DNA of 64,000 nucleotides from Squalus acanthias (GCA_030390025.1 JASTWF010000034.1:1488001-1552000); one strand, 5' to 3'; counted from the stretch's first letter, positions 1 to 50,573 are shown. The notes: generated by a model not told the origin, from the sequence alone. Translations and numbers: made by a program.

Positions 1-327
1 TAACGGCAAAGTGTGTCTGACAAACTTGATTAAATTCTTTGATGAAGTAACGGAGAGGGTAGATGAGGGTAGTGCGGTTGATGTTGTGTATATGGACATC
101 CAAAATGCATTTGATGAAGTACAATTGAATAGACTTGATAGGACCAAAGGGACAGTGGCAGTGGGGATCTGACATTGGCTAAGGGACAGAAAACCGAGAG
201 TAGTGGTGAACGGTTGTTGTTCAGACTGGAGGGAAGTGTACAGTGGTATCCCCCAGGGGTCGCTATTCGGACCACTGCTCTTTTTGATATATATTAATGA
301 TATAGACATATATATATATATACACAT

Positions 328-1220: not shown

Positions 1221-4146
1221 CAGGGGGAGCCAGTAGATGTGGTGGTGTAGAATTCGCAATATATCGCGATTTGATTAATAAGGAGAAAACACAAAGTTTC
1301 GTTCAAACAGCTTTTATTTCAGCAGAATGCTGGCAGGTTTAAATTGGACACAAGCAGCCTGTAAAATGGCCGCCGCACCTCGTGACAGAACATTCTAGAC
1401 TTTTCAACAGGCAGACAAGATGGCGTTCCAATAAACATTTGTGCAAGATCGATTAAGATTCAGCACAGTGAAGATAATACACGAGACATTATGGGTTTGC
1501 AGTATAAACATAGATACTGGAATCGGTCTCCCAGGTACAAAGGAAAGCCATTGTACCGAGTAATCAAGGGCCCATCCAAAAGACATTAATATGTAAAATC
1601 CCAACGACTCTACGATGAGAGAGCCGTTAGCAGGTAGTTATACAGGACACTTGGAAGCCCCAAACCCCTCCAGGGAGAACACCGACCGATTGAACAATGG
1701 GAGAAATATTAACAGGTACTCAGACATTTACGAGTAGCCCCGAAACCCATTAAGAACGGAGATCACCCATACAAGACATTTGGGCGCCAAACCCTAAACA
1801 AAAGAAAGGACATAATAGTTGGGCGGGAAACGGAAGATTTTGCACTATAATTGCAGGCTCCAAACCGTCCATTCTCTCTCTTGCATTCGCTCGCTTGCTC
1901 CTGTGCTTTTATCCGGTCGATTCGTAACCTCGTGGCTGCTCCTGTGTGCTCGTAGTTGGGCTTCTGCTTGCCTGTTGCCTCTTCTGAAAAGACTGTTGAA
2001 CTTTCTGATCCGTTCGGATCTACCTCGTGTCGCGTAACGAAGACCTATGTTGGTAACTGGCAGCGGAACCGAAGGCCCGAGATGAGATGAGATGAGATGA
2101 GATGAGATGAGAAGAGAGGAAGACCATATCCATCGCCACGGTCAGTAAATCCCGACCGCGCCTGTAGGTCGATTAGCCAAGTTTTCCTCGCCAGGAAGAT
2201 TTCTCTTTTGAACTTATAACGAAACATATTGCATCGACGATAACTGGACTGTGTCCAGGGTAACTGGAACGTGAAAACACATCGTATCGATGATATTGAC
2301 AACTGTGCTCCAAGAGTACCTGTTAAGCCAACCAACACAGGTCTTCATCACAGCAGACGGTCCAGCCTGCTAGCCGGAGCAGCAGAAGCAAGTAAACAAG
2401 TGGGACCAGGAGATCTCCTGACCGACACGTGGGTGCTGCGGTGAAAAACATCCGATCAGCTATTCGGAATTTCTCCGAGTTATCACGAGTGGTGAGCATG
2501 ATTCTCGAGATCCTACGAATCTAGTTTAGGATAGATATTGATAGGGGAGGGTTTAAGGATTAAGGATATTTGTAATGTGTGCCCCTATTTACTTTGTGCC
2601 GTTCGTTCCTCGTTTCCCTAAGATCGACTATATAACTGTTTGTAAGATTGTACTGTCATTAATCTGTGCTTATGACATGTACTTCATAATTTTAAGTATC
2701 ATTCAATAAAGATTTTCCATTTCGTACCATTCAAACCAAGTCTACATGAGTTTTATCTCCATTACTGCTCTCGCATCTAAGTCCAGTGTCTAGAACCGTA
2801 AGGGAGAGTGATTCGAACCACTCACAGGTGTGTCTAGTGTTCCCAGACTGGCTGGAGACCAGAACAGGCAACAAGGCCTAGACCCGCACTGACATACAGG
2901 CTGCACAGAGCCGCGTGAATCTCACAGGCTGCGAGACACGCAGGGTCAGGAATCCCTTACAGTGGATTTGGATTTTCAGAAGGCATTCGATAAGGGCCAC
3001 ACAAGAGGTTATTAAACAAAATTAGGGTTCATGGGATTAGGGGTAATACACTAGCATGGGTTGAGGATTGGTTAACGGACAGAAAACAGAGAGTAGCAAT
3101 AAACGGGTCATTTTCGAGTTGGCAGGTTGTAACTAGTGGGGTACCGCAAGAATCAGTGCTTGGGCCTCAGCTATTCTCAATCTACATCAATGATTTGGAT
3201 TAGGGGACCAATAGCAATATATCCAAGTTTGCTGATGATACAAAGCTGGGTGGGAATGTAAGTTGTGAGGAGGATGCAAGGAGGCTTCAAGGAGATACAG
3301 ACAGGCTAAGTGATTGGGCAAGAACATTGCAAATGGACTATAACGTGGAGAAATGTGAAGTTAGGAAAAATAGTAAAGTAGAGTATTTTTTAAATAGTGA
3401 GAGATTGGGAAATGTTGGTGTTCAGATGGACCTGGGTGTACTTGTACGTGAATCACTGAAATTTAACATGTAGGTACAGCAAGCAATTAGGAAAGCAAAT
3501 GGTATGTTGGCCTTTATTACAAGAGGATTTGAGCATAAGAGTAAAGGCATCTTACTGCAATTATATAAGGCCCTGGTCAGACCACACCTGGAGTATTGTG
3601 TACAATTTTGGTCACCTTACCTAAGGAAGGATATACTTTCCAAAGAGGGATTTCAACGAAGGTTCACCAGGCTGGGTCCTGGGATGGGGCGGAGGTTTTT
3701 CCTATGAGGACAGATTGAGTAGACTAGGCCTATATTTCTAGAGTTTAGAAGAATGAGAGGTGATCTCATTGTAACATACAAAATTCTTCCAGGGTACATG
3801 TTAGATGCAGGGAGGATGTTTCCACTGGCTGGGGAGTGTAGAACCAGGGATCACACTCGCAGAATAAGGGGTCGGCCAGCAAGGTCTGAGATGAGGAGAA
3901 ATTTCTTCACTCAGAGGGTGGGGGATCTTTGGAAATCTCTACCTCTGAGGGCTGTGGTCGTTGAGTATATTCAAGACAGAGATCGATAGATTTTTGGATA
4001 TGAAGGGAATCAAGGGATATTGGGAAAGTTCAGGAAAGTGGAGTTCAGGTAGAAGACCAGCCATGATGATCTTATAGAATGGTGCAGCAGGCTCAATGGG
4101 CCGAATGGCCTACTGCTGCTCCTATTTCTTATCTTCCTATGTTCTA
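1221..4146 (+). mobile_element. 5'-truncated CR1 LINE split by an LTR insertion (1246-2961)
   Basis: GEPVDVV before the insert rejoins [10 protein letters not shown] after it. The copy continues through KFADDTK and LVRPHLEYCVQFWSP to a CR1 3' UTR and tail at ~4060-4146. Confidence 0.9.
1246..2961. mobile_element. Solo LTR (~1.7 kb), LTR retrotransposon or ERV
   Basis: TGTA...TACA termini with GTGG duplicated on both sides (1242-1245, 2962-2965). Removing it restores the CR1 reading. No internal gag/pol; (GAGAT)n at ~2079-2110. Confidence 0.8.
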
Positions 4147-4149
4147 ACT

Positions 4150-4752
4150 CTCACTATCTATCCCCATCATTCTCTTTACCTCTGTCTCTCTGTCTGTCTC
4201 TCTCTCTCGATGGCGCTCCCCCTGGCTGTCTTTCTCTCTCTCTCTCTGTTTATATTTCTCTATGCTCACTCTCTTTGTCTTTGACTGTCTCTCTCTCTCT
4301 ATCTTTGACATCCCTCACCCTGAATCTTCCCCTCAATGTCTCTCCCCCTCAGTCTCTCTCCCTCAATCTCTCTCCCCCCTCAAAATCCCTCTCCCCCTCA
4401 ACCTTTCTCTCAACCTCTCCCCCTCACAATGTATCTCCCCCAATCAGTCTCTCCCCCCTCAGTCTCTCCCCCCCTCACACTCTGCCCCCTCAGTCTCTCC
4501 CCCCAATCTCTCTCCCACAATCTATCTCCCCCTCAATGTCTCTCCACTCAATCTCTCCCTCAATCTCTCTCTCAATGGCTCTCCCTCAATGGCTCTCCCT
4601 CAATGGCTCTCCCCTCAATGGCTCTCCCCCTCAATGGCTCTCCCCCTCAATGGCTCTCCCCCTCAATGGCTCTCCCCCTCAATGGCTCTCCCCCTCAATG
4701 GCTCTCCCCCTCAATGGCTCTCTCCCTCAATGGCTCTCTCCCTCAATGTCTC
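4150..4752. repeat. CT-rich low-complexity tract grading into a 16-bp minisatellite (TGGCTCTCCCCCTCAA)
   Basis: Direct reading; clean 16-bp period at ~4575-4745. Confidence 0.9.
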
Positions 4753-4754
4753 TG

Positions 4755-7700
4755 GGCTGAAGGGAGTTATACATTGGAGATCCCCAGGGTTTAGAACAGG
4801 GGGCTGGATTAGGCAAACACTGGACATAACCACGACGCTGTACTGGGGGCTGGCAAGCGGCATACAGTGGATTTCCCCTGTGATCAGTACTGTAGGCTGA
4901 AGGGAGGTATACATTGGAGATCCCCAGGGTTGAGGACAGGGGGCTGGAGTAGACAAACACTGGACATAACCACGATGCTGTACTGGGGGCTGGAAAGAGG
5001 CATACAGTGGATTTCCCCTGTGATCAGTACTGTACGCTGAAGGGAGCTATACAGTGGAGTTCCCCAGGGTCCAGTACTGTGGTCTGGGGGGAGGTATACA
5101 GTGGAGTTCCCCAGGGTCCAGTACTGTGGTCTGGGGGGAGGTATACAGTGGATTTCCCCAGGGTTCAGTAGCAGGGACTGGAGAGAGGTATATAGTGGAG
5201 TTCCCCAGGGTTCAGTACTGGGGTCTGGAGAGAGGTGTACAGTGGAGTTCCCCACAGTTCAGTACTGGGGGCTCGAGCGAGGTATACAGTGGAGTTCCCC
5301 AGGGCTCAGTACAGGTGTCTGGGGGGAGGTATACAGTGGAGCTCCGCAGGGTTTAGTACTGGGGGCTGGAAGGAGGTATGCAGTGGAGATCCCCAGGGTT
5401 AAGTGGCAGGGGCTGGAGGGGGTTTACAGTGGAGTTCCCCAGGATTCAGTACTGGGGTCTGGAGGGAGGTATACAGTGGAGTTCCCCAGGTTTCAGTACT
5501 GGTGTCTGGGGGGAGGTATACAGTGGAGTTCCCCAATGTTGAGCACTGGTATTTGGAGGGAAGTATACAGTGTAGAACCCCAGGTTTGAGTACTGGGCTC
5601 TGGAGGGATGTTATACAGTGGAGTTCCGCAGGGTTCAAGACTGGGGTCTGGAGGGAGGTTTGCAGGTCGATTACCCCGGGTTCAGTACTGGGGTCTGGAG
5701 GGAGGTATACAGTGGAGATCCCCAGGGTTCAGTACTGGGGTCTGGAGGGAGGTATACAGTGGAGATCCCCAGGGTTCAGTACTGGGGGCTGGAGGGAGGG
5801 ATACAGTGCAGTTCCGCAGTATTCAGTACTGGGTGCTGGAGGGAGGTATACAGTGGAGTTCCCCAGGGTTTAGTACTGGGGTCTGGAGGGAGGTATACAG
5901 TGGAGTTCCCCAGAGTTCAGTACTGGGGTCTGGAGGGAGGTATACAGTGGAGTTCCCCTGGGTTCAGTACTGGGGTCTGGAGGGAGGTATACAGTGGAGT
6001 TCCCCAGGGTTCAGTACTGGGTTCTGGAGGGAGGTATACAGTGGAGTTCCCCAGGGTTCAGTACTGGGGTCTGGAGGGAGGTATACAGTGGAGTTCCCCA
6101 GGGTTCACTACTGGGGTCTGGAGGGAGTTATACAGTGGAGTTCCCCAGGGTTCAGTACTGGGGTCTGGAGGGAGGTATACAATGGAGTCCCCCAGGGATC
6201 AGTACTGGGGGCTGGAGGGAGGTATACAGTGGAGTTCCCCAAGGTTCAGTACTGGGGTCTGGACGTCGGTATACAGGGCGATTCCACAGGGTTCAGTACT
6301 GGGCGCTGGAGAGAGGTACACAGTGGAGATCCCCAGGGTTCAGTACTGAGTGGTTGGAGAGAGGTATACAGTGCTGTTCCCCAGGGTACAGTATTGGGAG
6401 GCTGGAGAGAGGTATACAATGGAGTTCCCCAGGGTTCGGTACTGTGGGACTGGAGGGAGGTATACAGTGGATTTCCCCGGGGTTCAGTAGCAGGGTCTGA
6501 GAGTAGGTATACAGTGGAGTTCCCCAGGGTTCAGCAAAGGGGTCTGGAGGGTGGTGTACAGGACGATTCCCCAGGGTTCAGTTCTGGGCGCTGGAGGGAG
6601 GTTTCCAGTGGAGTTCCCCAGGGTTAAGTACTGGAGTCTGGGGGATGTATACAGAGGAGTTCCTCAGGGTTCATACCTGGTGGCTGGTGGGAGGTATACA
6701 GTGGAGTCCACCAGGGTTCAGTACTGGGGTATGGAAGGAGGTATAAAGTTGAGTTCCCCCAGTGAACAGTACTGGGGACTGGAGGAAGGTGCACAGTTAA
6801 GTTCCCCAGTGTTCAGTACTGGGGTCTGGAGTGAGGTACACTGTGAAGTTCCCCAGGGTTCAGTACCGGGGTCAGGAGAGAGGTGTACAGTGGAGTTCCC
6901 CACAGTTCAGTACTGGGGACTCAAGCGAGGTATACAGTGGAGTCCCCCAGGGCTCAGTACCGGGGTCTGGAGAGCTGTGTACAGTGGTGTTCCCCACAGT
7001 TCAGTACTGGGGACTGGAGTGATGTATACAGTGGAGATCCCCAGTGATCAGTACCGGGATCTGGAGAGAGGTGTACAGTGGAATTCCCCACAGTTCAGTA
7101 CTGGGGACTCAAGCGAGGTATACTGTCGAGTTCCGCAGTATTCGGTTTTGGGGGCTGGAGGTAGGTATGCAGAGGAGTTCCCCAGGGTTGAGTGGCAGGG
7201 GCTGCAGGGGGATTACAACGGAGTTCCCCAGGGTTCAGTATTGGATTGGAAGCGAGGTATGCAGCGGAGTTCCCCAGGGTTCAGTACTGGCGGCTGGAGG
7301 GAGGTAAACAGTGGAGTTCCCCAGGGTTCAGTACTGGGGTCCGGGGGTATGTATACAGTGTAGATGCCCAGGGTTCTGTCCTGTGGGCTGGAGAGAGGTA
7401 CACAGTGGAGTGCCCCAGGAATCAGTACTGATATCTGGGGGAAGGTATACATTGGAGATCCCCAAGGTTCAGTGCTGGGTTCTGGAGGGAGGTATACTGG
7501 ACGATTCCCCAGGGTTCAGTACAGAGCGCTGGAGGGAGGTATACAGTGGAGTTCCCCAGGGTTCAGTAGCAGGTGCTGGAGGGAGGTATACGGTGGAGTT
7601 CCCCAGAGTTCAGTCCTGGTGTCTGGAGGGAGGTATACACTGGAGTTTCCGAGGGTTCGGAACTAGGGTCTGGAAGGAGGTATACAGTGTTATTCCCCTG

Positions 7701-8850
7701 GGTTCAGTACTGGGGTCTGGGGGAATGTATACAGTGTAGATCCCCAGGGTTCAGTACTGTGGGCTGGAGAGTGGTACACAGTGGAGTTCCCCTGGGTTCA
7801 GTACTGGGGGGTTGGATGGAGCAATACAGTGGATTTCCCCAGGGTTCAGTTGCAGGGGCTGGAGGGAGGTATACAGGGTAGTTCCCCAGGGTTCAGTACT
7901 GTGGGCTGCAGGGAGATATACAGTGCTGTTCCAAAGGGTTCAGTATTGGGGCGATGGAGGGAGGTATACAGTGCAGATCCGCAGGGTTCAGTACTGGGGT
8001 CTGGAGCGAGGTATACAGTGGAGTTCCCCAGGGTTCAGTCCTGGTGTCTGGGGGGATGTATACAGTGGAGTTCCCCAGGGTACAGTACTGGGGGCTGGAG
8101 GGAGGTATACAGTGGAGTTCCCCAGGGTTCAGTACTGGGGGCTGGAGGGAGGTATACAGTGGAGTTCCGCAGGGTTCAGTACTGGGGTCTGGAGGGAGGT
8201 ATGCAGTGGAGTTCCCCAGGGTGCAGTACTGGTGTCTGGAGTGAGGTATACAGTGGAGTTCCACAGGGTTCCGTACTGGGAGCTCGAGGAAGGTATACAG
8301 TTGAGTTCCCCAGGGTTCAGTACTGAGATCTGGAGAGAGGAATACAGTGGAGTTCTCCAGTGTTTAGTACTGTGATCTGGAGGTAGGTATACAGCGCAAT
8401 TCTCCAGGGTTCAGTACTGGGGTCTGGAGGGAGGTATACAGTGGAGTTCCCCAGGGCTCAGTACTGGTGTCTGGAGGGAGGCATACAGTGGAGTTCCCCA
8501 GGGTTCAGTACTTTGGGCTGGAGGGAGGTACACAGTGGAGTTCCCCAGTGTTCAGTACTGGGGTATGGAAGGAGGTATACAGTGGAGTTACCCAGGGTCC
8601 AGTACTGGAGTCTGGAAGGAGGTATACAGTGCAGTTCCCCAGGGTTCAGTACTGGGGTCTGGAGGGAGGTATACAGTGCAGTTCCCCAGGGTTCAGTACT
8701 GGGGTCTGGAGGGAGGTATACAGTGCAGTTCCCCAGGGTTCAGTACTGGGGTCTGGAGGGTGGTATACAGTGCAGTTCCCCAGGGTTCAGTACTGGGGTC
8801 TGGAGGGAGGTATACAGTGGAGTTCCCCATGGTTCAGTACTGGGGGAGGG
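4755..8850 (+). repeat. 47-bp tandem satellite (~85 units) derived from CR1 RT coding sequence
   Basis: Consensus GGAGGGAGGTATACAGTGGAGTTCCCCAGGGTTCAGTACTGGGGTCT encodes WREVYSGVPQGSVLG; compare the CR1 at 226-270. Confidence 0.9.
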
Positions 8851-8924
8851 CGGAGACATAAATGTTATAGTTATAGTCATACATTTCCATTACTGATTGA
8901 TATTATTTATTATTTATTTCTAAT

Positions 8925-9368
8925 AGCAATTTAATGGGCATATAATTGGCAAATGCAATTGAACACAGATAAATCTGAGATATTACATTTTGGGAAGAAA
9001 AAGAGAGAGGTCACATATTACTTTGAAAATAAGAATCTAAATGGGGCAGAGGAGCAAAGGGATCTCGGAGTACAAATACACACATCACTGAAAGTAGCGA
9101 CACAGGTTAATAAGGTCAGAAAAAGCAAACCAATCACTCGGGTTTATTTCTGGAGGGGTAGAATTGAAAATTAGTGAATTTATGCTAAACGTGTATCGAA
9201 CCTTGTTTAGATCACACTTGGAGTGCTGCGTACAATTCTGGTCGCTATATTCTAAAAAGGATATAGAGGCACTGGAGAGGGTGCAGAGAAGATTTACATG
9301 GATAATACCAGAAAAGCTAGGTATACATATTAGGAATGGATGGACAGGCTTGCTCTCCTTTCTCTTAA
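8925..9368 (+). mobile_element. CR1 ORF2 C-terminal fragment
   Basis: WQMQLNTDKSEILHFG and RSHLECCVQFWS..LERVQRRFT. Confidence 0.85.
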
Positions 9369-9700
9369 TAAGAACATAAGAACATAAGAAATAGGCGCAG
9401 GAGTAGGCCAATTGGCCCCTCGAGCCTTCTCCGCCATTCAATAAGATCATGGCTGATCTGATCCCAACCGCCAATCTACTATCACAGAACCATATCCTGA
9501 ACCTAACAGAATTGGACACACGAAATAGGAGCAGGATCAGGCTACACGACCCCTGGGCCCACTGCGCTACCCACAGGGCCATGACCGATCCGAACCTAGA
9601 CTCATGTGCAAATTCCTGCCCGCTCCCCGTAGCCCTTAAGATCCCTTTACTTCTAGGAAACTGTCTATTTCTGTTTTAAATTTATGCAATGATGTAGTTG
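9369..9700 (-). mobile_element. CR1 3' end (tail and UTR), reverse orientation
   Basis: (AAGAACAT)n tail followed by AAATAGG..CAGGAGTAGGCCA..GGCCCCTCGAGCC, the reverse complement of the CR1 3' UTR. Confidence 0.8.
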
Positions 9701-9764: not shown

Positions 9765-10008
9765 TACCTCCAGGGCAGGTACAGTGGGTTAGATACAAAG
9801 TTCAGCTCCCTCTACACTTCCCCACCAAACATTCCCAGGGCAGGGACAGCACGGGTTAGGTACAGAGTAAAGTTCCCTCCAATTTGGTTCATCAACACAA
9901 CCAACTGTGATACATCATGTGTTCAATGCAGCGTACAGCTCCCTTGACACTACCCAATGAAGCACAACCAGCTCGGGTACAGCATGGGGTCAATACAGAA
10001 TAAAGATC
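9765..10008 (-). repeat. Degenerate units of the 67-bp satellite
   Basis: GGGCAGGTACAG..GGGTTAGATACA.AGT..AGCTCCCTCTACAC is the reverse complement of the 17.7-19.9 kb unit. Confidence 0.8.
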
Positions 10009-13000
10009 CAAGAGGCAGGGCAATATCAGGAAGGTAGTGCAGGAGTCGTCTTCCTCCAAAACAGATATACCGTTTTGGATTCTGTTGGGGGAAATGACCT
10101 ACCAGGGGAAGGCACCAGCAGCCAGGTTCATGGCACCATGGCTGGCTCTGCTGCACAGCAGGGCGGGAAAAAGTGTGGCAGAGCTATAGTGATAGTGGAC
10201 TCAATTGTAAGGGGAATAGACAGGAGTTTCTGTGGCCGCAACCGAGATTGCAGGATGGTATGTTGCCTCCCTGGTGCAAGGGTCAAGGATGTCTCGGAGC
10301 GGCTGCAGAACATTCTGGAAAGGGAGAGTGAAGAGCCAGCTGTCGTGGTGCATGTAGGTACCAACGATATAGGTAAAAAGCGGGAAGAGGTTCTGCAAGC
10401 AGAATTTCGGGAGCTAGGAGCTAAATTGAAAAGTAGGACCTCAAAGGTAGTAATCTCTGGGTTGCTACCAGTGCCACGTGCTAATCATAGCAGCATGAAC
10501 AGGACAGCGAGATTAAATACGTGGCTTGAGCAGGGGTGCAGGAGGGAGGGATTCAAATACCTGAGGCATTGGAACCAGTTATGGGGGAAGTGGGACCTGT
10601 ACAAAAGGGACGGTCTGCACTTGGGCAGGACTGGAACCGATGTCCTCGGGGTCATATTTGCTAAGGCAGTTCGGGAGGATTTAAACTAATATGGCAGGGG
10701 AATGGGAACCTATGTAGCGAAACAGGGGGAAGTACTATGCAGTCAGAAACAAATGTTAGAAGGGTGAGAAACAATAAGGGTAATCAGAGTAAACAAAGGC
10801 AAGAAACACAAAGGGCCATACTAAATCATAAGTCTAAAAGGACAAAGGGTGTTAATAAAACAAGCCTAAAGGCTCTGTGTCTTAATGCAAGGAGTATCCG
10901 TAATAAGATGGATGAATTGACTGTGCAAATTGAAGTTAACGGATATGATGTGATTACAGAGACGTGGCTCCAGAACAATCAAGGCTGGGAACTGAATATC
11001 AAGGGGTATTCAACATTCAGGAAAGATAGAATAAAAGGAAAAGGGGGTGGGGTAGCATTGCTGGTTAAAAAGGAGATTAATGCAACAGCTAGGAAGGACA
11101 TTAGCTTGGAGGATGTGGAATCAATATTGGTTGAGCTGCAGAACACCAAAGGGCAGAAAACGTTAGTGGGGGTTGTGTACAGACCTCCAAACAGAAGTAG
11201 TGAGGTGGGGGAGAGAATGAAACAGGAAATCAGAGCTGCATGCAAAAAAGGCGCAGCAGTTATCATGGGTGACTTTAATATGCATATAGATTGGGCTACT
11301 CAAACTGGAAGCAATACGGTGGAGGAGGATTTCCTGGAGTGTTTAAGGGATGGTTTCCTAAACCAATATGTTGAGGAACCAACTAGAGGGGAGGCCATCC
11401 TGGACTGGGTGTTGTGTAATGAGGAAGGACTCATCATCAATCTTGTGGTACGAGGCCCCTTGGGGAAGAGTGACCATAGTATGGTGGAGTTCGACATTAA
11501 GATGGAGAAGGAAACAGTTAATTCAGAGACCATGGTCCAGAACATAAATAAGGGCAACTTTGAGGGTATGAGGCGTGAATCGGCGAGGTTAGATTGGCAA
11601 GCGATATCTAAGGGGTTATCAGTGGAAGGGCAATGGCAGACATTTAGAGATCGCATGGATGAGCTACATCAATTGTACATCCCTGTCTGGGGTAAAAATA
11701 AAAAAGGGAAGGTGGCTCAACCATGGCTAACAAGGGAAATCAGGGATAGTATTAAAAGCAAGGAAGTGGCATACAAATTGGCCAGAAGTAGCAATAAACC
11801 CGGGGACAGGGAGAACTTTAAAACTCAGCAGAGGAGGACGAAGGGTTTGATTAGGGCAGGGAAAATAAAATATGAAAGGAAGCTTGCGGAGAACATTAAA
11901 ACGGACTGTAAAAGCTTCTATAAATATGTAAAAAGTGGTTAGTAAAAACAAACGTAGGTCCCCTGCAGTCAGAAACAGGGGAAGTCATAATGGGGAACAA
12001 AGAAATGGCTGATCAATTGAACAAGTACTTTGGTTCGGTGTTTACTGTGGAGGACACAAACAACCTTCCGGAAATAAAAGAGATCAAAGGATCTGGTAAG
12101 AGGGAGGAGCTGAGGGAAATCCTTATCAGTCGGGAAAAGGTGTTGGGGAAATTGATGGGACCGAAGGCTGATAAATCCCCAGGGCCTGATGGTCTGCATC
12201 CCAGAGTACTTAAGGAGGTGGCCTTGGAAATAGTGGATGCATTGACGATCATTTTCCAACATTCCTTAGAATCTGGATCAGTTCAGAAGTAGTGGAGGGT
12301 GGCTAATGTAACCCCTATTTTTAAAAGAGGATGGTGGGAGAAAGCAGGGAATTATAGACCGGTCAGCCTGACATCGGTGGTGGGTAAAATGATGGAATCA
12401 ATTATTAAAGATGTCATAACAGACCATTTGGAAAGTGGCGACATGATAGGTCCAAGTAAGCATGGATTTGTGAAAGGTAAATCATGCTTGACAAATCTGG
12501 AATTTTTTGAGGATGTTTCCAATAGGGTGGACGGGGGGGGGAATCAGTAGATGTGGTGTATTTGGACTTTCAGAAGGCCTTCGACAAGGTCCCACACAAG
12601 AGATTGGTGTGCAAAGTTAAAGCACATGGGATTGGGGGTAATGTGTTGACGTGTATTGAGAACTGGTTGGCACACAGGAAACAAAGAGTAGGAGTAAATG
12701 GGTACGTTTCAGAATGGCAGGCAGTGACCAGCGGGGTACTGCAGGATTCGGTGCTGGGGCCCCAGCTGTTTACATTATATATTAATGATTTGGACGAAGG
12801 GATTAATTGTAATATCTCCAAATTTGCGGATGACACTAAATTGGGAGGCAGTGTGAACAATGAGGAGGATGCTAGGAGGCTACAGAGTGACTTGGACAGG
12901 TTGGGTGAATGGGCAAATGTATGGCAGATGAAGTACAATGTGGATAAATGTGAGGTTATCCACTTTGGTGGTAAAAATAGGGAGGCAGACTATTACCTGA

Positions 13001-13760
13001 ATGGTGGCAAATTAGGGAAAGGGGAGGTGCAACGAGACCTGGGCGTCATGGTACATCAGTCACTGAAGGTGGGAAGGCAAGTGCAGCAGGCAGTCAAGAA
13101 AGCAAATGGCATGATGGCCTTCATAGCAAGGGGATTTGAGTACAGGAGTAGGGAGGTGATGCTGCAGTTGTACAGGGCCTTGGTGAGGCCACACCTGGAG
13201 TATTGTGCGCAGTTTTGGTCTCCTAACTTGAGGAAGGAGATTCTTGCTATTGAGGGAGTGCAACGAAGGTTCACTAGATTGATTCCTGGGATGGCGAGAC
13301 TGACATATCAAGAAAGACTGGATCAACTGAACTTATATCCTCTGGAGTTCAGAAGAATGAGGGGGGATCTTATAGAGACGTTTAAAATCCTGACTGGTTT
13401 AGACAAATTAGATGCGGGCAGAAGGTTTCCAATGTTAGGGAAAACTAAAACCAGGGGTCACAGTCAAAGGATAAAGGGGAAGCGATTTAAGACTGAGATG
13501 AGGAGGAACTTCTTCAACCAGAGAGTGGTGAATCTGTGGAATTCTCTACCACAGAAGGTTGTTGAGGCCAGTTCGCTAAATATATTCAAAAGGGAGTTAG
13601 ATATAATACTCACAACTAGGGGGATCAAGGGGTATGGCGAGAAAGTAGGAATGGGGTACTGAGGTAGCATGTTCAGCCATGAACGCATTAAATGGCGGTG
13701 CAGGCTCGAAGGACCGAATGGTCTACTCCTGTACCTATTTTCTATGTTTCTATGTTTCTA
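10009..13760 (+). mobile_element. CR1 LINE, 5'-truncated in ORF1; ORF1 SGNH esterase plus disrupted ORF2 (APE endonuclease + RT)
   Basis: ORF1 has AIVIVDSIVRG and VHVGTND (ends 10689). ORF2 has LNARS, ITETW, MGDFN, SDH and KFADDTK with stops/frameshifts near 11940, 12290 and 12550. (TTTCTATG)n tail. Confidence 0.95.
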
Positions 13761-13943
13761 CATGTAAGTGTCAAACACTCCCGGGTGAGCTACGGGCAAG
13801 GTTTATCTCCGAGTTAATCTCCGCTCAACTTGACACATCAAAGGCCGAGCCTGATGGCAGATGTTGAACAGCTCCCAGTATCTGGTTAGATTCTCACCTT
13901 GGCAGAATCCTGGACTGATGGAATTCTCAGTAAAGCTACTCAC

Positions 13944-14114
13944 CTTTCCAATCATTGTTGAAGCTTCCCGTTTTATCCCGTCTCCGACACGGGGGATCTC
14001 GATCCCACCAGATCTGCTCTGTGAAACCAGAGACATTTCTCCAGTCCCAGTCAGTGAGGCGATGATTCGACTTCTCTCTCTCCACCTTCCTGAGATATTG
14101 CTCACTCCCAGAGA
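13944..14114 (-). other. Putative second exon (first coding exon, MSLVSQSRSGGIEIPRVGDGIKREASTMIGK) of an unidentified gene, copy A
   Basis: Acceptor ttttctattgacAG ends at 14115. ATG at 14036 gives 31 codons to the donor AAG|GTGAGT at 13944 (phase 0). Paralogous copy at 26150-26313. Confidence 0.5.
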
Positions 14115-14293
14115 CTGTCAATAGAAAAATGATTCATAATAATCCCAGATCCAATACCTGGAATACAGTGGGGCTGTTTTTGTGACTGGGATTGTATCTA
14201 ATTTCATTATATTGGCAATTAATGTGTATTTGAATTACTTACATTAATATTAAATTGGTCCTTTCAGCCCTTTGCCCTGTTTATTGGGACTAA

Positions 14294-14415
14294 ACTCACC
14301 CCCAGTGTCAGCTGTCACTCCAGCTCCTCCCACACTGACATCCCACTGATGGGTCGTAACCAGGGGCGGGGCCCTGTTTCCAAGTGACATCACACAGGAG
14401 CAGGGAGCCAATCAA
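14294..14415 (-). promoter_or_regulatory. Putative promoter and short non-coding exon 1, copy A
   Basis: Donor GG|GTGAGT at 14300/14299, GC box GGGGCGGGGC at 14363-14372, TGACATCA at ~14385, CCAAT at ~14408. Confidence 0.45.
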
Positions 14416-17721: not shown

Positions 17722-19958
17722 TTTGATGGAACAGTGTAGAGGGAGCTTTACTCTGTATCTAAACCGTGCTGTATCTGCCCTGGGAGTGTTTGGTGGGACA
17801 GTGTAGAGGGAGCTTTACTCTGTATCTAAACCGTGCTGTATCTGCCCTGGGAGTGTTTGGTGGGACAGTGTAGAGGGAGCTTTACTCTGTATCTAAACCG
17901 TGCTGTAACAGCCCTGGGAGTGTTTGATGGGACAGTGAAGAGGGAGCTTTACTCTGTATCCAACCCGTGCTGTACCTGCCCTGGCAGTTTTTGATAGGAC
18001 AGTGCAAAGGGAGCTTTATTCTGGAACTAACCCATGCACTACATGCCCTGCGAGTGTTTGATGGGACAGTGAAGAGGGAGCTTTACTCTATATCTAACCT
18101 GTGCTGTACTTGCCCTGAGGGTGTTTGATTGGACAGTGTAGAGGGAGCTTTATTCGGTATCTAACCCGTGCTGTACCTGCCCAGTGAGTGTTTGATTGGA
18201 CAGTGTAGACGGAGCTTTACTCTGTAACTAACCCATGCACTAACTGCCCAGCGAGTGTTTGATGGGACAGTGTCGACGGAGCTGTATTCTATATATAACC
18301 ATTGCAGTTCCTGCCCTGGGAGAGTTTGATGGGATTCTGTATTGGGATCTTTACTCAGCATCTTACCTGTGCTGTACCTGTCCTGGGAGTGTTTGATGGG
18401 ACGGTGTATAGGTAGCTTTACTCTGCATCATACCTGTGCTGTACCTAAACTGGGAGAGTTTGATGGGACAGTGGAGAGGGAACTTCTTTCCATATCTAAT
18501 CCATGCTGCACCTGCCCCGGGACTGTTAGATGGGACAGTGTAGAGGGAGCTCTACTCTATATCTAACCATTGTTGTATCTGCCCTGGGATTGTTTGATGG
18601 CACAATGTATAGTGAGCTATACTCTGTATCTAACCCGTGCAGTACCTGGCCTGGGAGTGTTTGTTGGAACAGGATGGAGGGGTCTTTACTCTGTATCTAA
18701 CCCGTACTGTTCAAGACCTGGGAGTGTTTGATGTGATAGTATGCAGGGAGCTTTACTCAGTATCTAACTCGTGCTGTACCTGCCCTGGGAGTGTTTGATG
18801 GGGCAGTGTAGAGGGAGCTTTACTCTGTATCTAATCCGTGCTGTACCTGACCTGGGAGTGTTTGATGCAACAGTGTAGAGGCAGCTTTACGCTGCATCTT
18901 ACCCGTGCAGTACCTGGCCTGGGAGTGTTTGATGTGATAGTATACAGGGAGCTATAGTCAGTATCTAACACGGGCTGTACATGCCTGGAAATATTTGATG
19001 GGACAGTGCATAGGGAGCTTTACTCTGTACCTAACCCATGCACTAACTGCCCTGCGAGTGTTTGATGGGACAGTGCAGTGGGAGCTTTACTCTATATCGA
19101 ACCATTGCTGTACCTGCCCTGGGCGTGTTGGATGGGATTCTGTAGAGGGATCTTTACTCTGCATCTAACCCGTGCTGTAACTGGCCTGAGAGTGTTTGAT
19201 GCAACAGTGCAGAGGCAACCTTACTCTGTATCTTACCTGTGCTGTACCTGACCTGGGAGTGTTTGATGGGATAGTATGGAGGGAGCTTTATTCGGTATTT
19301 AACCCGGGCTGTACTTGCCTGGGACAGTTAGATGGGACAGAGTAGAGGAAGCTTTACTCTGTATCTTACCCTGTGCTGCAGCTGCCCTGGGAGTGTTTGA
19401 TGGGTCCTTTTAGAATGATCTTTACTCTGCAGCTAAACTGTGATATACCTGCCCTGGCAGGTATTGAAACGACAGTGTAGAGGGAGCTTTACTCAGTATC
19501 TAACCCGTGCTGTATCTGCCCTGGGAGTCATTGATGGGACAGTGTAGAGGGAGCTTTACTCTGTATCTAACTCGTGCTGTCGCTGCCTGGGAATGCTTGT
19601 TGGGACAGTGTAGAGAGAGCTTTCCTCTGTGTGTAACCCGTGCTGCACATGACCTGGGATTGTTTGATGGCATAATGTGGAGGGAGCATTACCCTGTATC
19701 TAAACCGTACTCAAACTGCCCCAGGAGTGTGTGTTGGGACAGTGTAGAGGGCTCTTTACTCTGTATCTAAACCTTGCTGTACCTGCCCTGGGTGTGCAAA
19801 AACGGCCAGTGTATTGTGCGCTTTACTCTATATCTAACCCATGCTGTACCTAACCTGTGAGTGTTTGATGGGACAGTGCAGTGCGATCTTTACTAAGAAT
19901 CTAACAAATGCTGTACCTGCACTGGGACTGTTTGATGGGACAGTGTAGTGGGAGCCTT
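17722..19958 (+). repeat. 67-bp tandem satellite (~33 units)
   Basis: Unit GGGACAGTGTAGAGGGAGCTTTACTCTGTATCTAACCCGTGCTGTACCTGCCCTGGGAGTGTTTGAT; period 67 measured at 17741/17808. Confidence 0.95.
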
Positions 19959-20141
19959 ATAACTCTTTATACCGTTAGAATCCTTAATAATCATTTACAA
20001 AAGGTGTATAACGGGTTATTAAGGATTGTAAAAAGGAATAAGAGGAGTACAGTATACATTGGTCTAAGTAAGCTTCGGGAAAACAAAAGTCAATAAATAA
20101 ACTAAAACTAGAAAATTAATAAGTAATATAAGGGTTAAGTC

Positions 20142-21088
20142 ATGGCAGTAGAGCTCGGACCTGTGTCATGCTCCTCCTGTAACATGTGGGAAATCATGGA
20201 CGCTTCCTGTGTCCCTGACAACCATGTGTGCGGGAAGTGTGTCCAGCTGCAGCTCATGTGGGACCGCATGACGGCCCTTGAGCTGCGGATGGACTCACTT
20301 TGGAGCATCCACGATTCTGAGAGGGTTGTGAATAGCACATTTAGTGAGTTGGTCACACCGCAGGTTAAGGCCAGAGTAGATAGTACATGGGTGACCAAAA
20401 GGCAGAGCAAGGGCAGGAAGGTAGTGCAGGAATCCCCTGGGGTTGTCTCCCTCAGCAACAGGTTCACCGCCTTAGGTGCTGTTGTCGGGGGGGATGACTC
20501 ATCGGGGGAAGGCACCAGCAGCCAGGCTCATGGCACCATGACTGGCTCTGTTGCAAAGAAGGGAGGGAAAAGAGTGGCAGGGCTATAGTAATAGGGGATT
20601 CGATTGTAAGGGGAATAGATAGGAGTTTCTGTGGTCGCGACCGAGACTCCAGGATGGTAATTTGCCTCCCTGGTGCAAGGGTCAAGGATGTCTCGGCGCG
20701 GGTGCAGAACATTCTGGAGGGGGAGGGGGAACAGCCAGTTGTCGTGATACATGTTGGTACCAACGACGTAGCTAAAAAAAGGGAAGAGGTCCTACAAGTA
20801 GAATTTAGGGAGTTAGGAGCCAAGCTAAAAAGTAGGACCTCGAAGGTAGTAATCTCTGGATTACTACCAGTGCCACGTGCTAGTAAGAGTACAGAGAACA
20901 GGATAGTTAGGCTAAATACGTGGCTTGAGCAGTGGTGTAAGAGGGAGGGTTTTAAATTTTTGAGGCATTGGGACCAGTTTTGTGGTAGGTGTGACCTATA
21001 CAATAGGGACGGTCTACACCTGTGCAAAGATGGAACTGATGTTCTCGGGGTAAATTTTGATAAAGCAGTTCGGGAGCATTTAAACTAG
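20142..21088 (+). pseudogene. CR1 ORF1 (CxxC..CxxC zinc finger, coiled coil, SGNH esterase) with one frameshift at ~20570
   Basis: CSSCNMWE..CGKC, then AIVIGDSIVRG and IHVGTND in the next frame; one A is missing from an A-run relative to the 10.1-kb copy. Confidence 0.85.
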
Positions 21089-24030
21089 TATGGCAGGGGG
21101 CTAGAAACCCATGTAGTGAAATAGAGGAAAGTGAAAGGCAGACAGAAATAAATGGTAAAAAGGAGAGGAACAAAAAACAAAGGGCCAAACTAATTCATAA
21201 AAAATGTGAGCATAAAAAAAGCCTGAGGGTTTTATACCTTAATGCGAGAAGCATCAGGAACAAGGTAGATGAATTAGCTGTGGAAATAGAGGTTAATAAT
21301 TATGATCTAATTGGGATTACGGAAACATGGTTGCAGGGTGAGCAGGGCTGGGAGCTTAACATACAGGGGTATTCAGTATTTAGGAAGGATCGACAAAAAA
21401 GAAAGGGAGGAGGGGTAGCATTGCTGGTAAAAGAGGGGATAAATGCAATTGAAAGGAAGGATATTAACTCAGTTAATACAGAATCTATATGGGTGGAGCT
21501 AAGAAATAGCGAGGGGCGAAAAACATTAATAGGAGTGGTATATAGGCCTCCAAATAGTAAAATAGAGGTTGGGGAGGGCATCACGAGGGAAATTAGAGAA
21601 GCGTGCAATAAGAGCACAGCTGTCATCATAGGTGACTTTAACTTACATATAGATTGGACTAGCCTAATCAGTAAAAATAATGAGGAGGAGGAATTCCTTG
21701 AGTGTTTAAGGGATGGTTATCTGGATCAATATGTCGAGGAACCAACTCGGGAACAGGCTATATTGGACTGGGTACTGTGCAATGAGAAGGGACTAATTAG
21801 TAATCTTGTTGTACGGGGACCCTTGGGTCAGAGCGATCATAACATGATCGATTTCTCACTCGAAATGGAGAGCGAAGAAATTGACTCAGAGACTCAGGTC
21901 CTGAATTTAAACAAGGGGAATTATGATGCCATTAGACGGGAACTGAGTAGGTCTGATTGGACAACGTTCCTGGGAGGACTGGAGGTAGATAAACAATGGC
22001 AAGCATTTAAAGATAGAATGACAAAATTGCAAAAATTGTTTATACCAATCTGGCATAAAAGGAAATCTAAAAAGGTGACTCAACCGTGGATAACAGGGGA
22101 AATTAGAGACAGCATAAAATCCAAAGATAGGGCGTATAAAATAGCCAAAAAACGCGCCAGAGCGGAAGATTGGGAACAGTTTAAGATAGAGCAAAGGAGG
22201 GCAAAGGGCTTAATCAAGAAGGGCAAAATAGCTTACGAAAGCAAGCTGGCGGAAAATATAAAAACTAACTCCAAAAGCTTTTATAAGTATATCAAGAGGA
22301 AAAGACTGGTGAAAACCAAAGTTGGTCCATTGCAGTCAGATACGGGGGAATATATAATGGGAAATAAGGAAATGGCAAACCAACTAAATGCATACTTTGG
22401 GTCAGTCTTTACGAAGGAAGACACAAAAAACCTCCCTGGGATATCGGGAAAAATAGGGACATTGGCAAAGGAGGAACTGACGCAAATCAATATCTCTAAG
22501 GATATGGTGTTAAGGAAGCTAAAGGGATTGAAGGCGGACAAATCCCCAGGGCCTGATAACATGCATCCTAGGGTACTGAAGGAGGTGGCCCTAGAGATAG
22601 CGGATGCACTAAGCATGATTTTTCAGAATTCATTAGACTCGGGAACAGTGCCCATGGATTGGAGGGTAGCTAACGTTACCCCACTATTCAAAAAGGGGGG
22701 TAGGGAAAAAGCAGGTAATTACAGACCTGTAAGCCTTACATCAGTTGTGGGCAAAATGCTGGAGTCCATCATTAAGGATGAAATAGCCGAGCACTTAGCA
22801 AATGGGGATAGGATAGGACAGAGTCAACATGGATTTACAAAGGGTAAATCGTGCTTGACTAATCTATTGGAATTTTTTGAGGGAGTAACTGGTAAAATAG
22901 ATGGGGGAGAGCCAGTAGATGTGGTGTACCTGGACTTCCAAAAGGCCTTCGATAAGGTCCCACATAAAAGATTAGCATGGAAAATTGAAGCTCATGGGAT
23001 AAAGGGGAAAGTATTGACGTGGATAGAGAACTGGCTGTCAGATAGAAAACAGAGAGTTGGAATAAACGGCTCATTTTCTGAATGGCAGGCAGTAACAAGT
23101 GGGGTACCACAGGGATCTGTCCTGGGTCCCCAGCTGTTCACAATTTATATTAATGACCTGGATCAGGGAGTCGAATGCAGCATTTCCAAATTTGCAGACG
23201 ACACTAAACTAGGAGGGGGGGTGGGCTCAGAGGAGGAGACCAGGAAGCTCCAGAGCGATTTGGACAGACTGGGTGATTGGGCGGATAAATGGCAGATGCA
23301 CTATAATGTGGACAAGTGCGAAGTTATCCACCTTGGGTGCAGGAACGGGAGGGCAAATTATTATTTAAATGGCAATAAATTGGGAGAGGGGGAAGTACAG
23401 AGAGACCTGGGTGTTCTTGTACACCAGTCACTGAAGGCGAGCATGCAGGTGCAACAGGCGGTCAAGAAGGCAAACGGTATGCTGGCCTTCATAGCAAAAG
23501 GGTTGGAATACAGGAACAGGGATACCTTGCTGCAGCTGTACAGGGCACTGGTGAGACCACACCTCGAGTACTGTGTACAGTTTTGGTCGCCTCATCTGAG
23601 GAAAGATGTTCTTGCCATGGAGGGGGTGCAGCGGCGATTCACCAGGCTGATACCAGGAATGGCGGGATTGACCTATGAGGAGAGACTATGTAGTTTAGGG
23701 ATGTACACACTGGAGTTTAGAAGATTGAGAGGGGACCTCATAGAAGTGTATAAAATTCTGACAGGTCTAGACAGATTAGATGCAGAAGGAATGTTTCCCT
23801 TGGCGGGTGAGAACAGAACTAGAGGACATAATTTAAGGATAAGGGCTAAACCATTTAGGACAGAAATGAGGGGGAATTTCTTCACTCAGAGAGTGGTGAA
23901 CCTGTGGAACTCATTGCCACAGAGGGCAGTGTACGCCAGCTCATTAAATATATTTAAGAGGGAATTAGATATATTTCTACAGGCAAAAGGGGTTAAGGGT
24001 TACGGAGAGAAGGCGGGGACGGGATACTGA
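21064..24030 (+). CDS. CR1 ORF2, AP-like endonuclease plus reverse transcriptase; open from 21064, no early ATG
   Basis: No stop from 21064 to 24030. Motifs [46 protein letters not shown] and FADD. Confidence 0.92.
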   Translation, partial: SSSGAFKLVWQGARNPCSEIEESERQTEINGKKERNKKQRAKLIHKKCEHKKSLRVLYLNARSIRNKVDELAVEIEVNNYDLIGITETWLQGEQGWELNIQGYSVFRKDRQKRKGGGVALLVKEGINAIERKDINSVNTESIWVELRNSEGRKTLIGVVYRPPNSKIEVGEGITREIREACNKSTAVIIGDFNLHIDWTSLISKNNEEEEFLECLRDGYLDQYVEEPTREQAILDWVLCNEKGLISNLVVRGPLGQSDHNMIDFSLEMESEEIDSETQVLNLNKGNYDAIRRELSRSDWTTFLGGLEVDKQWQAFKDRMTKLQKLFIPIWHKRKSKKVTQPWITGEIRDSIKSKDRAYKIAKKRARAEDWEQFKIEQRRAKGLIKKGKIAYESKLAENIKTNSKSFYKYIKRKRLVKTKVGPLQSDTGEYIMGNKEMANQLNAYFGSVFTKEDTKNLPGISGKIGTLAKEELTQINISKDMVLRKLKGLKADKSPGPDNMHPRVLKEVALEIADALSMIFQNSLDSGTVPMDWRVANVTPLFKKGGREKAGNYRPVSLTSVVGKMLESIIKDEIAEHLANGDRIGQSQHGFTKGKSCLTNLLEFFEGVTGKIDGGEPVDVVYLDFQKAFDKVPHKRLAWKIEAHGIKGKVLTWIENWLSDRKQRVGINGSFSEWQAVTSGVPQGSVLGPQLFTIYINDLDQGVECSISKFADDTKLGGGVGSEEETRKLQSDLDRLGDWADKWQMHYNVDKCEVIHLGCRNGRANYYLNGNKLGEGEVQRDLGVLVHQSLKASMQVQQAVKKANGMLAFIAKGLEYRNRDTLLQLYRALVRPHLEYCVQFWSPHLRKDVLAMEGVQRRFTRLIPGMAGLTYEERLCSLGMYTLEFRRLRGDLIEVYKILTGLDRLDAEGMFPLAGENRTRGHNLRIRAKPFRTEMRGNFFTQRVVNLWNSLPQRAVYASSLNIFKRELDIFLQAKGVKGYGEKAGTGY

Positions 24031-25545: not shown

Positions 25546-25960
25546 TGTAGCATGAGTTATACACAGAGTAAAGCTCCCTTTACACTGCCCAATCAAACAG
25601 TCCAAGGGCAGGTACAGCACGGGTTAGATAGAGAGATACAGAGTAAAGCTCCCTTTACACTGCCCAATCAAATAGTCCAAGGGCAGGTACAGCACGGGTT
25701 AGATCGAGAGATACAGAATAAAGCTCCCTTTACAATGCCCAATCAAACAGTCCAAGGGATCGAACAGCACGGGTCAGATAGAGAGATACAGACTAAACCT
25801 TCCTCTGCACAGTCCACTCAAACACTCGCAGAGCAGGTACAGCGCGGGTGACATGCAAAGCTCCCTCTAATACAGCATGTGCAGCGTACAGCTCCCTTGA
25901 CACTACCAATGAAGCACAACCAGCTCGGGTACAGCATGGGACGAATACAGAATAAAGATC
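25546..25960 (-). repeat. 67-bp satellite units, reverse orientation, including a 75-bp variant
   Basis: ACAGAGTAAAGCTCCCTTTACACTGCCCAATCAAA repeats with period 75 (25561/25636). Confidence 0.85.
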
Positions 25961-26149
25961 TCACTACATGCAAGTGTGAAACACTCCCGGGTGAGGTACG
26001 GGCAAGGTTTATCTCAGAGTTAAGCTCCGCTCAACTTGCCACATCAAAGGCCAAGCCTGATGGCAGATGTTGACCAGCTCCCAGTATCTGGTTAGACTCT
26101 CACCTCAGCAAAATCCTGGACTGATGGGATTCTCAGTAAACTTCCTCAC

Positions 26150-26580
26150 CTTTCCAATCATTGTTGAAGCTTTCCGTTTTATCCCGTCTCCGACACGGGG
26201 GTCTCGGTCCCACCAGATCTGCTCTCTGAACCCAGCGACATTTCTCTCGTCCAGGTCAGTGAGGCGATGATTCGACTTCTCTCTCTCCACCTTCCTGAGC
26301 TTTTGCTCACTCCCTGTCAACAGTAAAATGATTCATATTAATCCCAGAATACAGGGGGAGCATTTTTGTGACCATAATTATATTCAATGTGATTATTTTT
26401 GCAATTAATCAGTGTATTTGAATTACTTACTTTAATATTGAATAGTTCTTTTCTGTCCATTGCCCTGTTTATTGGGACTAAACTCACCCCCAGTGTCAGC
26501 TGTCACTCCAGCTCCTCCCACACTGACATCCCACTGATGGGCCGTAACGAGGGGCGGGGCTGTTTCCAGGTGACATCACA
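26150..26580 (-). pseudogene. Copy B of the promoter/exon 1/exon 2 module; exon 2 frameshifted
   Basis: Collinear with 13944-14395. Splice sites are kept (26313 acceptor, 26150 and 26488 donors), GC box at 26551-26560. ATG-to-donor distance is 92 nt versus 93 in copy A. Confidence 0.5.
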
Positions 26581-26954
26581 CAGCAGCCAGGAACGAAGTC
26601 ACAAAGCGGCCGGTGCCGCTCCCACTCGAGGTGTCACAGGGTCACATTGACCAGGCTCTGCTCCTGGTGTGCAGTCTCACTGGGCATGAACACAGAGTGT
26701 ACAATCAGCCCCGTCTCCGGGAATGAACCGGGATCCTGCCCTGCATCTCTCCCGAGTTTTATTTCCATCGGTGTAAAATGGGTGGCTGATTCACAATTAC
26801 CCAGTTTGTACTATAGCACCTACTAAACGTCAAACTCTACCCCAGTATTTATTTCCTTCTCTACGTATCTGCTCCCTCACTGTCTCTGCCTCTCTCTCTC
26901 TCTCTCCACAGTGAGGGATGCGTCTGGGGCTGGGATCATACTGTGCGGAAAGGA

Positions 26955-28077: not shown

Positions 28078-28200
28078 TTGAATCATAGAATGGTTACAGC
28101 ACAGAATGAGGCCTTACGGCCCATCGAGCCCGTGCCGGCTCTCTGCAAGAGCACTTCAGCAAGTCCCTTCTCCCCCACCCTTTCCCCGTAGCACTGCAAA
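28078..28200 (-). mobile_element. CR1-type 3' tail
   Basis: ATAGAATGGTTACAGCACAGAA..GGCC..CGGCCCATCGAGCC. Confidence 0.7.
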
Positions 28201-30760: not shown

Positions 30761-30782
30761 AAATAGCCCACAGCCCTAATAG

Positions 30783-31210
30783 TGCAGCTGCTGGTTGCGT
30801 GGGCCGGGCAGCTGCTGGTTGCGCGGGCCGGGCAGCTGCTGGTTCCGCGGGCCGGGCAGCTGCTGGTTCCGCGGGCCGGGCAGCTGCTGGTTCCGCGGGC
30901 CGGGCAGCTGCTGGTTCCGCGGGCCGGGCAGCTGCTGGTTCCGCGGGCCGGGCAGCTGCTGGTTCCGTGGGCCGGGCAGCTGCTGGTTCCGCGGGCCGGG
31001 CAGCTGCTGGTTCCGCGGGCCGGGCAGCTGCTGGTTCCGCGGGCCGGGCAGCTGCTGGTGGTTCCGCGAGCCGGGCAGCTGCTGGTTGCGCGGGCCGGGC
31101 AGCTGCTGGTTGCGCGGGCCGGGCAGCTGCTGGTGGTTCCGCGGGCCGGGCAGCTGCTGGTTCCGCGGGCCGGGCAGCTGCTGGTTCCGCGGGCCGGGCA
31201 GCTGCTGGTT
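30783..31210. repeat. 24-bp GC/CpG-rich minisatellite (CAGCTGCTGGTTCCGCGGGCCGGG)n, ~18 units
   Basis: Direct reading; near-identical units with two 27-bp variants. Confidence 0.95.
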
Positions 31211-34452: not shown

Positions 34453-34674
34453 AGTCCTCCAGACACCCTGCTGGCATTAAATTCAATCTTCACACTCACC
34501 CCTGCTTGGCAGCAGATGTGTCTCTATCTGGAGTGTGTTTTAAACTAACTTAATCCCCAGTTATTCACGCTTAATATTGAAATAATTGTATTTGTCAACC
34601 AGTGTATTCTATTTAATAATCTATACATAGCAATACTTACAAGAACTTTTAAAATGTCTGCTTTCAGAGTAAAT

Positions 34675-35344: not shown

Positions 35345-35574
35345 CTGAAAAAAGGAGATTACAAAATTCATCACTAAGTACAGGACAGAAATTCAGAACA
35401 GACAATTCTAGTTTCTATGGAACAATCTTTCCTCTCTTGTTTCCCCCAAATGCTGTAAATTCCTGTCCCACACACTCTCCCTCTCCCTGTGTTGAAATCC
35501 TTACCCATTGCACCATATCTTTGCACCTCTCCCTCCCTCTGCTCTGCTTGGCTCCAGTTCTACAGACCCTGTGT

Positions 35575-50062: not shown

Positions 50063-50107
<45 letters not shown>

Positions 50108-50540: not shown

Positions 50541-50573
<33 letters not shown>

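Follow-up and report, generated by a model that had tools for sequence, protein, structure and literature searches.

In the Squalus acanthias sequence analysed here (the window, a whole stretch of 64,000 nucleotides; GCA_030390025.1, JASTWF010000034.1:1488001-1552000), positions 4757-8846 on the plus strand hold a tandem array of 87 units of 47 bp, the source of which is a stretch of CR1 ORF2 coding WREVYSGVPQGSVLG. Judging from its sequence and from related public contigs, the array is probably a member of a non-coding, CR1-derived minisatellite family that is common to several cartilaginous fishes. Most likely, the array would have no sequence-specific function beyond its repetitiveness, and its DNA is probably silenced.

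TRF placed the array at 4757-8845, with a period of 47, 87.0 copies, 80% matches, and 1% indels, and segmentation divided 4757-8846 into 87 units with a mean identity of 88.6% to the majority unit. Most of the units are 47 bp long (75 of 87), while the others measure 48 bp (seven units), 46 bp (four units), or 45 bp (one unit). The majority 47-bp unit translates in one frame to WREVYSGVPQGSVLG, which bears out the GVPQGSVLGP-type reverse transcriptase (RT) motif that a preliminary description had read from the unit. The most diverged units of the array are units 1-6 at its left edge (4757-5036, plus strand; 75.5% identity to the majority unit), where units 1-3 (4757-4896) have been copied as units 4-6 in a 140-bp higher-order repeat. 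The two copies are 94.2% identical across 138 bp, in agreement with the three-unit duplication of about 140 bp that had been noted at this edge. The most homogeneous block comprises units 21-32 (5695-6258, plus strand; 96.3% identity to the majority unit), followed by units 72-87 (93.6%).

Origin of the unit in a CR1 reverse transcriptase motif

Elsewhere in the window, the best ungapped match to the unit lies at 226-272 (plus strand), in a CR1 copy that belongs to the source lineage and has decayed. This match extends over 35 of 47 positions (74%), whereas the top score reached by 500 shuffled units was 30/47; among the CR1 motif sites on the plus strand of the window, the seven others score 27-32 of 47. 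The earlier statement that the unit closely matches the CR1 at 226-270 holds insofar as this site is the best in the window and lies above chance, but "closely" is too strong a word for 74% identity. Between the unit and the 226 site, mismatches at the first, second, and third codon positions number 3, 0, and 8, respectively, and the third codon position is the commonest mismatch class at all eight CR1 motif sites. Since the mismatches at the 226 site fall mostly at third positions, the pattern is the one expected of coding relatives.

Protein comparisons and public contigs point to the same origin. A protein search with 173-307 gave 17 matches among 21 candidates, the top match being P0023, a CR1 RT of Callorhinchus milii that carries RVT_1, with 82% amino acid identity, and the unit peptide is identical to P0023 at 14 of 15 residues. 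At least four contigs from run X6 depart from the unit at 8844 into CR1 ORF2 of the 226 type, as found after the motif at 273-300, and at least 26 contigs from run X2 leave the unit with a mixed consensus, the start of which resembles the 226-type CR1. Derivation of the unit from the RT motif of CR1 ORF2, the origin proposed for the satellite in the preliminary description, is thus supported by the score of 35/47 against a shuffle maximum of 30, by the P0023 match, and by the contigs that lead from the unit into ORF2. The match to P0023 and these contigs further indicate that the source was an old lineage of CR1 in cartilaginous fishes, related to the elephant-shark element. In the window, it is represented by the fragment at 1-420.

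The best phase of the unit relative to CR1 (36/47) lies two bases before the TRF phase, which suggests that the first duplication may have rested on a microhomology of 1-3 bases. Where TE-derived minisatellites are defined by a unit at least 70% TE-like, the unit shows 74% likeness to a decayed CR1 copy, and its likeness to contigs continuing as CR1 is at least 85%. An overlap of the array with a TE by one period, as used in the available text of PMC3389668, was not found at the locus.

Tandem forms of the unit in public contigs

Words from the array were present in 19 of 22 runs, belonging to eight studies and carrying nine organism labels; the largest word shares were 0.43 (organism A) and 0.35 (organism B), and none amounted to half or more. 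Contigs from four of the 22 runs (X2, X6, X14, and X16; organisms A, B, and H) were aligned to 8777-9400 at 85% likeness, and organisms C, D, E, F, G, and I, which have small word shares, were left out of the tandem count. Unit ends at 8843-8846 run into another unit in at least 34 + 60 + 61 contigs of X2 (organism A), at least 12 + 21 contigs of X6 (organism B), and at least 45 contigs of X16 (organism H). Summed contig depths were not taken as a measure of copy number or expression. Among the matches listed, joints that step back by 47 bases occurred in all four runs examined, and the tandem form was present in all three organisms examined (A, B, and H). Therefore, the tandem form predates or spans organisms A, B, and H, and it does so in many variants.

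The 30-mer tandem consensus past 8846 is identical in organisms A and H. This identity could mean constraint rather than slow evolution, and it counts against the explanation favored here. In X14, a run merely guessed to be RNA, at least 6 + 1 contigs carry the 47-bp back-joint, although transcription is not thereby established, and three runs of organism A that were also guessed to be RNA contain 0.00-0.02 of the array words, which is evidence neither way. The unit pattern gave no matches in metagenome, viral, and prokaryote contigs, which are microbial collections and hence uninformative here.

Turnover of the array and its probable history

Within units 7-87, 35 pairs of units share at least three derived variants, whereas 200 permutations gave 4.5 such pairs on average and 11 at most. 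Blocks of two to four units also recur at a distance, with units 11-12 resembling units 46-47 and 50-51, units 14-15 resembling units 52-53, and units 56-57 resembling units 64-65. Both the shared variants and the distant recurrence of blocks fit unequal exchange and gene conversion, mechanisms of tandem-repeat evolution that are reviewed in the available text of PMC6947457 and PMC3389668.

The family history that we favor would comprise three steps: (i) a 47-bp stretch of ORF2 in the old CR1 lineage described above, the relative of the elephant-shark element, would have been duplicated out of frame in an event that killed the copy; (ii) as the shared variants suggest, unequal exchange and gene conversion would have enlarged and partly homogenized the array, an outcome visible in the divergence of its edges, in its homogeneous blocks, and in variants common to units that are not adjacent; and (iii) the family would be older than the divergence of organisms A, B, and H. 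The present setting of the array is dense in repeats and contains a zinc-finger pseudogene, and rearrangement and segmental duplication may have brought the array there or left it behind. With rearrangement and segmental duplication at work in this setting, the present neighbors of the array would not be its parent.

Relation to known tandem repeats that arose from transposable elements

According to the available text of Ahmed and Liang 2012 (PMC3389668), the human genome holds 7,276 TE-derived tandem arrays, equal to 23% of its minisatellites and satellites; some TE regions (AluS and LTR12) are hotspots, and known mechanisms account for 6% of TE-derived tandem repeats. The shark array is like these human minisatellites in having a unit of more than 20 bp whose similarity to a TE is 70% or more and, presumably, in having grown by local duplication. 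It is unlike them in that the human repeats for which that text gives no known mechanism mostly consist of two units, whereas the shark array has 87 units, stems from the RT core of CR1, and is found in three organisms.

Satellites that originate in LINE ORF2 are described in the available text of a review (PMC9659126), namely chicken HinfI (SCR1), which derives from CR1, and Phodopus PROsat and seal Pvc20, which derive from L1 ORF2. The shark array shares an origin in LINE ORF2 with all three and an origin in CR1 with HinfI. However, as described there, HinfI combines the 3' UTR with a portion of ORF2, and the likeness of PROsat to L1 is confined to a small region, whereas the 47-bp shark monomer is the RT motif in its entirety, repeated out of frame. 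Chicken Cen2, 3, 4, 7, and 11, which derive from CR1-C, are likewise CR1-derived tandem repeats but are centromeric in the available account (PMC6947457), whereas the shark array is a 4-kb interstitial one. A description of the 47-bp repeat, or of such a satellite in cartilaginous fishes, was not found in the literature searched, the scope of which excluded most subscription journals and repeat databases. With a monomer that consists wholly of a conserved retrotransposon coding motif, the array is a clean example of its kind, and it is usable as a marker of repeat evolution in cartilaginous fishes.

The motif as a possible site of recurrent tandem duplication

It is possible, though unlikely, that the stretch coding for GVPQGSVLG is a recurrent hotspot of tandem duplication in LINE RTs, owing to its G-richness and to a short inverted repeat that reaches from the P-Q to the L-G codons. 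When the longest open frame of the array (345 amino acids; see below) was compared with 1.84 billion protein representatives, 14 matches were obtained, and motif tandems in frame were found in three unrelated RT proteins: six 16-aa copies in P0003, four 18-aa copies in P0005 (seven cluster members), and a longer duplication of the motif in P0014, a wood stork CR1. The 16-aa repeats of a further protein, P0006, may also be derived from the motif, but this protein was not counted because it has no RVT_1 match. The clear cases are, however, only three of the 14 matches, and the query, being a motif tandem too, favored such matches, with no control motif for comparison.

The unit folds a 6-bp stem, which speaks for the proposed hotspot. 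The fold is no better than that of shuffled sequences (z ~ -0.6) and is intact in 20 of the 87 units, and a conserved hairpin was rejected. Against the hotspot, a strong G-quadruplex is unsupported: a canonical G4 motif is absent, and G4Hunter gives a mean of 0.47. If the motif truly were a general hotspot of tandem birth in LINEs, the array would be more important, given that known mechanisms explain 6% of TE-derived tandem repeats in the available text of PMC3389668.

Flanks of the array and its birthplace

To the left, a CT-rich minisatellite with a 16-bp period (4325-4753; TRF) lies directly against unit 1, at the place expected for the CR1 5' flank, and no 5' part of CR1 ORF2 joined in register to unit 1 was found left of the array. 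The CR1 at 2962-4149 (plus strand) is a separate element, truncated at its 5' end and complete at its 3' end. It has a 3' tail of its own and, at 3119-3165, a motif copy of its own that scores 30/47 against the unit, and it is not the 5' flank of the array. To the right, the array gives way to an 87-bp AT-rich non-CR1 spacer (8847-8933), which is unique in the window, whereas contigs from organisms A and B show it to be multi-copy and joined to the CR1 piece. The spacer is followed by a decayed internal piece of CR1 ORF2 (8934-9370, plus strand) and then by an adjoining inverted CR1 3' tail (9371-9459, minus strand). The downstream CR1 ORF2 that had been placed at about 8925 is thus present and on the same strand, but it truly starts at 8934, behind the spacer. 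The array region is repeat-dense, with a C2H2 zinc-finger pseudogene at a distance of 26 kb.

Aligned to three CR1s of the window, the ORF2 piece begins 148 nt beyond the end of the motif, which means that the FADD catalytic region is missing, and it breaks off with about 310 nt of ORF2 still to come. On moderate evidence from short, decayed sequences, the piece probably belongs to a CR1 lineage other than the source of the unit. Its protein is identical to the source-lineage protein P0023 at 12 of 28 residues, compared to 17 of 29 for two unrelated CR1s of the window. Its sole match among five candidates was P0022 (34 of 62 residues identical), in which the motif region reads SYSDRQRVGSV, rather than WREVYSG, before an apparent frameshift. 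Furthermore, at least 11 contigs of X6 extend the piece upstream as QEDINKLA-type, P0022-like sequence, whereas the source lineage reads QEDIGRLVK (362-420) or QEHIDRMVK (P0023) at this position.

We therefore consider it quite unlikely that the array arose in place, within the CR1 that now lies 3' of it, and that the 5' part of this element and the 148 nt were lost afterwards. The 3' CR1 piece does lie on the same strand, in the correct order, and 87 bp off the array, and the spacer-CR1 join is old enough to occur in organisms A and B, such that an ancestral locus with this layout is possible. Yet the left neighbor of the array is the 16-bp minisatellite rather than a 5' ORF2 flank, and the protein of the 3' piece resembles P0022 and unrelated CR1s of the window more than it does the source lineage, with an upstream extension of a type other than that of the source lineage. 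The absent 5' flank, the 87-bp spacer, the 148 missing nucleotides, and the difference in lineage together leave birth in the flanking LINE without support. Consequently, of the proposal that the satellite was born inside a LINE, the origin in an RT motif is supported, and the birth in the CR1 at this locus is not.

Joins between the spacer and CR1

SVA-type composite retroelements contain a central VNTR. The shark locus is like SVA in that a GC-rich tandem array is joined to a piece of another retroelement and that a join, here between spacer and CR1, is multi-copy. The array, the spacer, and the 3' half of CR1 might accordingly be read as a non-autonomous retroelement of the SVA type, the CR1 3' end of which would let the CR1 machinery copy the array. 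To count a join as bridged, at least 31 letters were required on either side. Among the matches listed, the spacer-CR1 join is bridged by two X2 and three X6 records, which differ from the window by 5-17 letters. Also among the matches listed, one variant at 8928-8929 is carried by 16-17 X2 contigs, and five X2, three X6, and one X16 contigs carry another, which lies five bases inside the spacer at 8851. Several contigs run from the spacer towards the unit.

While the spacer-CR1 block is multi-copy, the composite that includes the array is decidedly doubtful. The array-spacer join is represented by one record among the matches listed, with 26 letters on the unit side versus the 31 required, and most of the listed unit ends lead to further units. 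Unlike SVA, the block has no 3' tail of its own at the locus, where the CR1 piece falls about 310 nt short of a complete ORF2 end. In addition, segmental duplication is a simpler cause of the multi-copy join, because a neighboring block (9927-10008 plus 13758-14401) is duplicated in the window at 25880-26587 with 87-95% identity, and such duplication next door accounts equally well for multi-copy joins. A fuller version, in which a shark RT-motif array of one CR1 lineage, joined through the spacer to the 3' half of another lineage, spreads as an SVA-like retroelement and seeds arrays genome-wide that possibly feed anti-CR1 small RNAs, seems improbable. If it were true that the array moves as a composite retroelement or makes anti-CR1 small RNAs, the finding would be more important.

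Proposed small RNAs or decoy against CR1

There is little chance that the array has been retained because it would supply small RNAs, or would act as a zinc-finger repressor decoy, against the source CR1 lineage, as far as its sequence can tell. Some CR1 contigs are at least 85% like the unit, the unit is in tandem in all three organisms examined, with tandem joints in one run guessed to be RNA, and the C2H2 zinc-finger pseudogene is 26 kb off. Against this, the longest exact matches between the array and the eight motif sites of the window, which include an intact 988-aa ORF2 at 21064-24030, are 8-12 nt long, and the best 26-mers have 4-8 mismatches. With so many mismatches per best 26-mer, the array would be a poor guide against the CR1 lineages of the window, although closer copies of the source lineage exist elsewhere (the contigs of at least 85% likeness). 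Moreover, the array covers 47 bp of an element of several kb, the unit hairpin is no stronger than that of shuffled sequences and is mostly not intact, and an Rfam search of the array gave no match.

Open reading frames

All plus-strand frames of the majority unit are free of stops, and the minus strand has one stop in each unit. Over the array, the longest plus-strand stop-free runs in the three frames are 211, 345, and 290 codons, so the earlier observation that all three plus frames stay open over long runs was correct; these long frames follow from the stop-free unit and reflect no coding selection. The longest of them (345 codons; 5590-6627, plus strand) is as long as under neutral models (P = 0.34 by column permutation and P = 0.22 under a neutral model), and its out-of-frame peptides have no protein homologue.

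A hint of coding selection, which counts against the explanation favored here, was a deficit of plus-strand stops, of which the array contains 36, compared to 49.6 and 59.8 expected under two simple null models. Among 222 isolated substitutions, stop-creating changes number 24 on the plus strand (~40 expected; P = 0.016) and 10 on the minus strand (21 expected; P = 0.012). Counts as low as those observed also came from 12% of the random triplet sets. The deficit is equally strong on the minus strand and is therefore not strand-specific, and coding selection on the array was rejected on the basis of this two-strand control.

Translation of the array through its long open frames into a repetitive protein is extremely improbable: although stop-free runs reach 345 codons, plus-strand stops lie under the simple null expectations, and units 7-87 contain 19 ATG triplets, the minus-strand stop deficit is as strong, 12 of the 87 units have a frame-shifting length, no homologue of the 345-aa frame was found among 8000 candidates of 189-604 aa, and no Pfam family was found for the array frame. 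The frame-cycling repeat was absent in the 11 that were examined of the 14 matches to the 345-aa frame. The top matches are bacterial repeats of the WD40 type and of a type that we take to be FG-GAP-like, which align to the frame as repeats.

RT motif tandems and CR1 context

The GVPQGS-type motif of the array is also tandemly duplicated, in frame, in RT proteins from other genomes (P0003, P0005 and P0014, matched in the protein search with the array's 345-aa frame), where the duplications span 16 aa, 18 aa or longer. Within the window, the CR1 ORF2 at 21064-24030 is intact over 988 codons and includes both endonuclease and RT; its lineage is therefore considered young, and its motif agrees with the 47-bp majority unit of the array at 31 of 47 positions. 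An older LINE fragment carries an insert of ~1.7 kb (1215-2880) that has no second copy in the window and, judging from its appearance, is possibly of LTR type. At 8915-8933, where the spacer between the array and the decayed CR1 piece to its right ends, a run rich in T leads into an AG immediately before the CR1 piece, an arrangement that resembles a splice acceptor.

Other features of the window

A tandem array with 33 copies of a 67-bp unit, which served only as a control in the analysis, and its shorter inverted relatives, among them a 75-bp variant, occupy 17722-19959, 9770-10000 and 25563-25849. At 28200-31210, a 30-bp array (86 copies) adjoins a GC-rich and highly homogeneous 24-bp array (17.5 copies, 95% matches) in which several frames are open. 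Further along lies a degenerate TC tract of 7.3 kb (49077-56399), near the start of which 434-631 codons run without a stop.

There is also a segmental duplication, in which 9927-10008 and 13758-14401 match 25880-26587 with 87-95% identity; a CR1 of nearly full length, at about 10009-13757, interrupts the first duplicate. Both duplicates contain a GC-box region and what may be an exon on the minus strand that has a GT donor, at about 13880-14117 in the first and about 26140-26315 in the second.

A frameshifted exon at 34650-35350 (minus strand), labeled C2H2 zinc finger from its translation as judged by eye, has a CpG-rich, promoter-like region upstream (36100-36700). Finally, two GC-rich stretches, 56420-58290 and 61640-62510, are related to each other; we take them to be putatively Harbinger-like, and the first contains a decayed transposase-like region.
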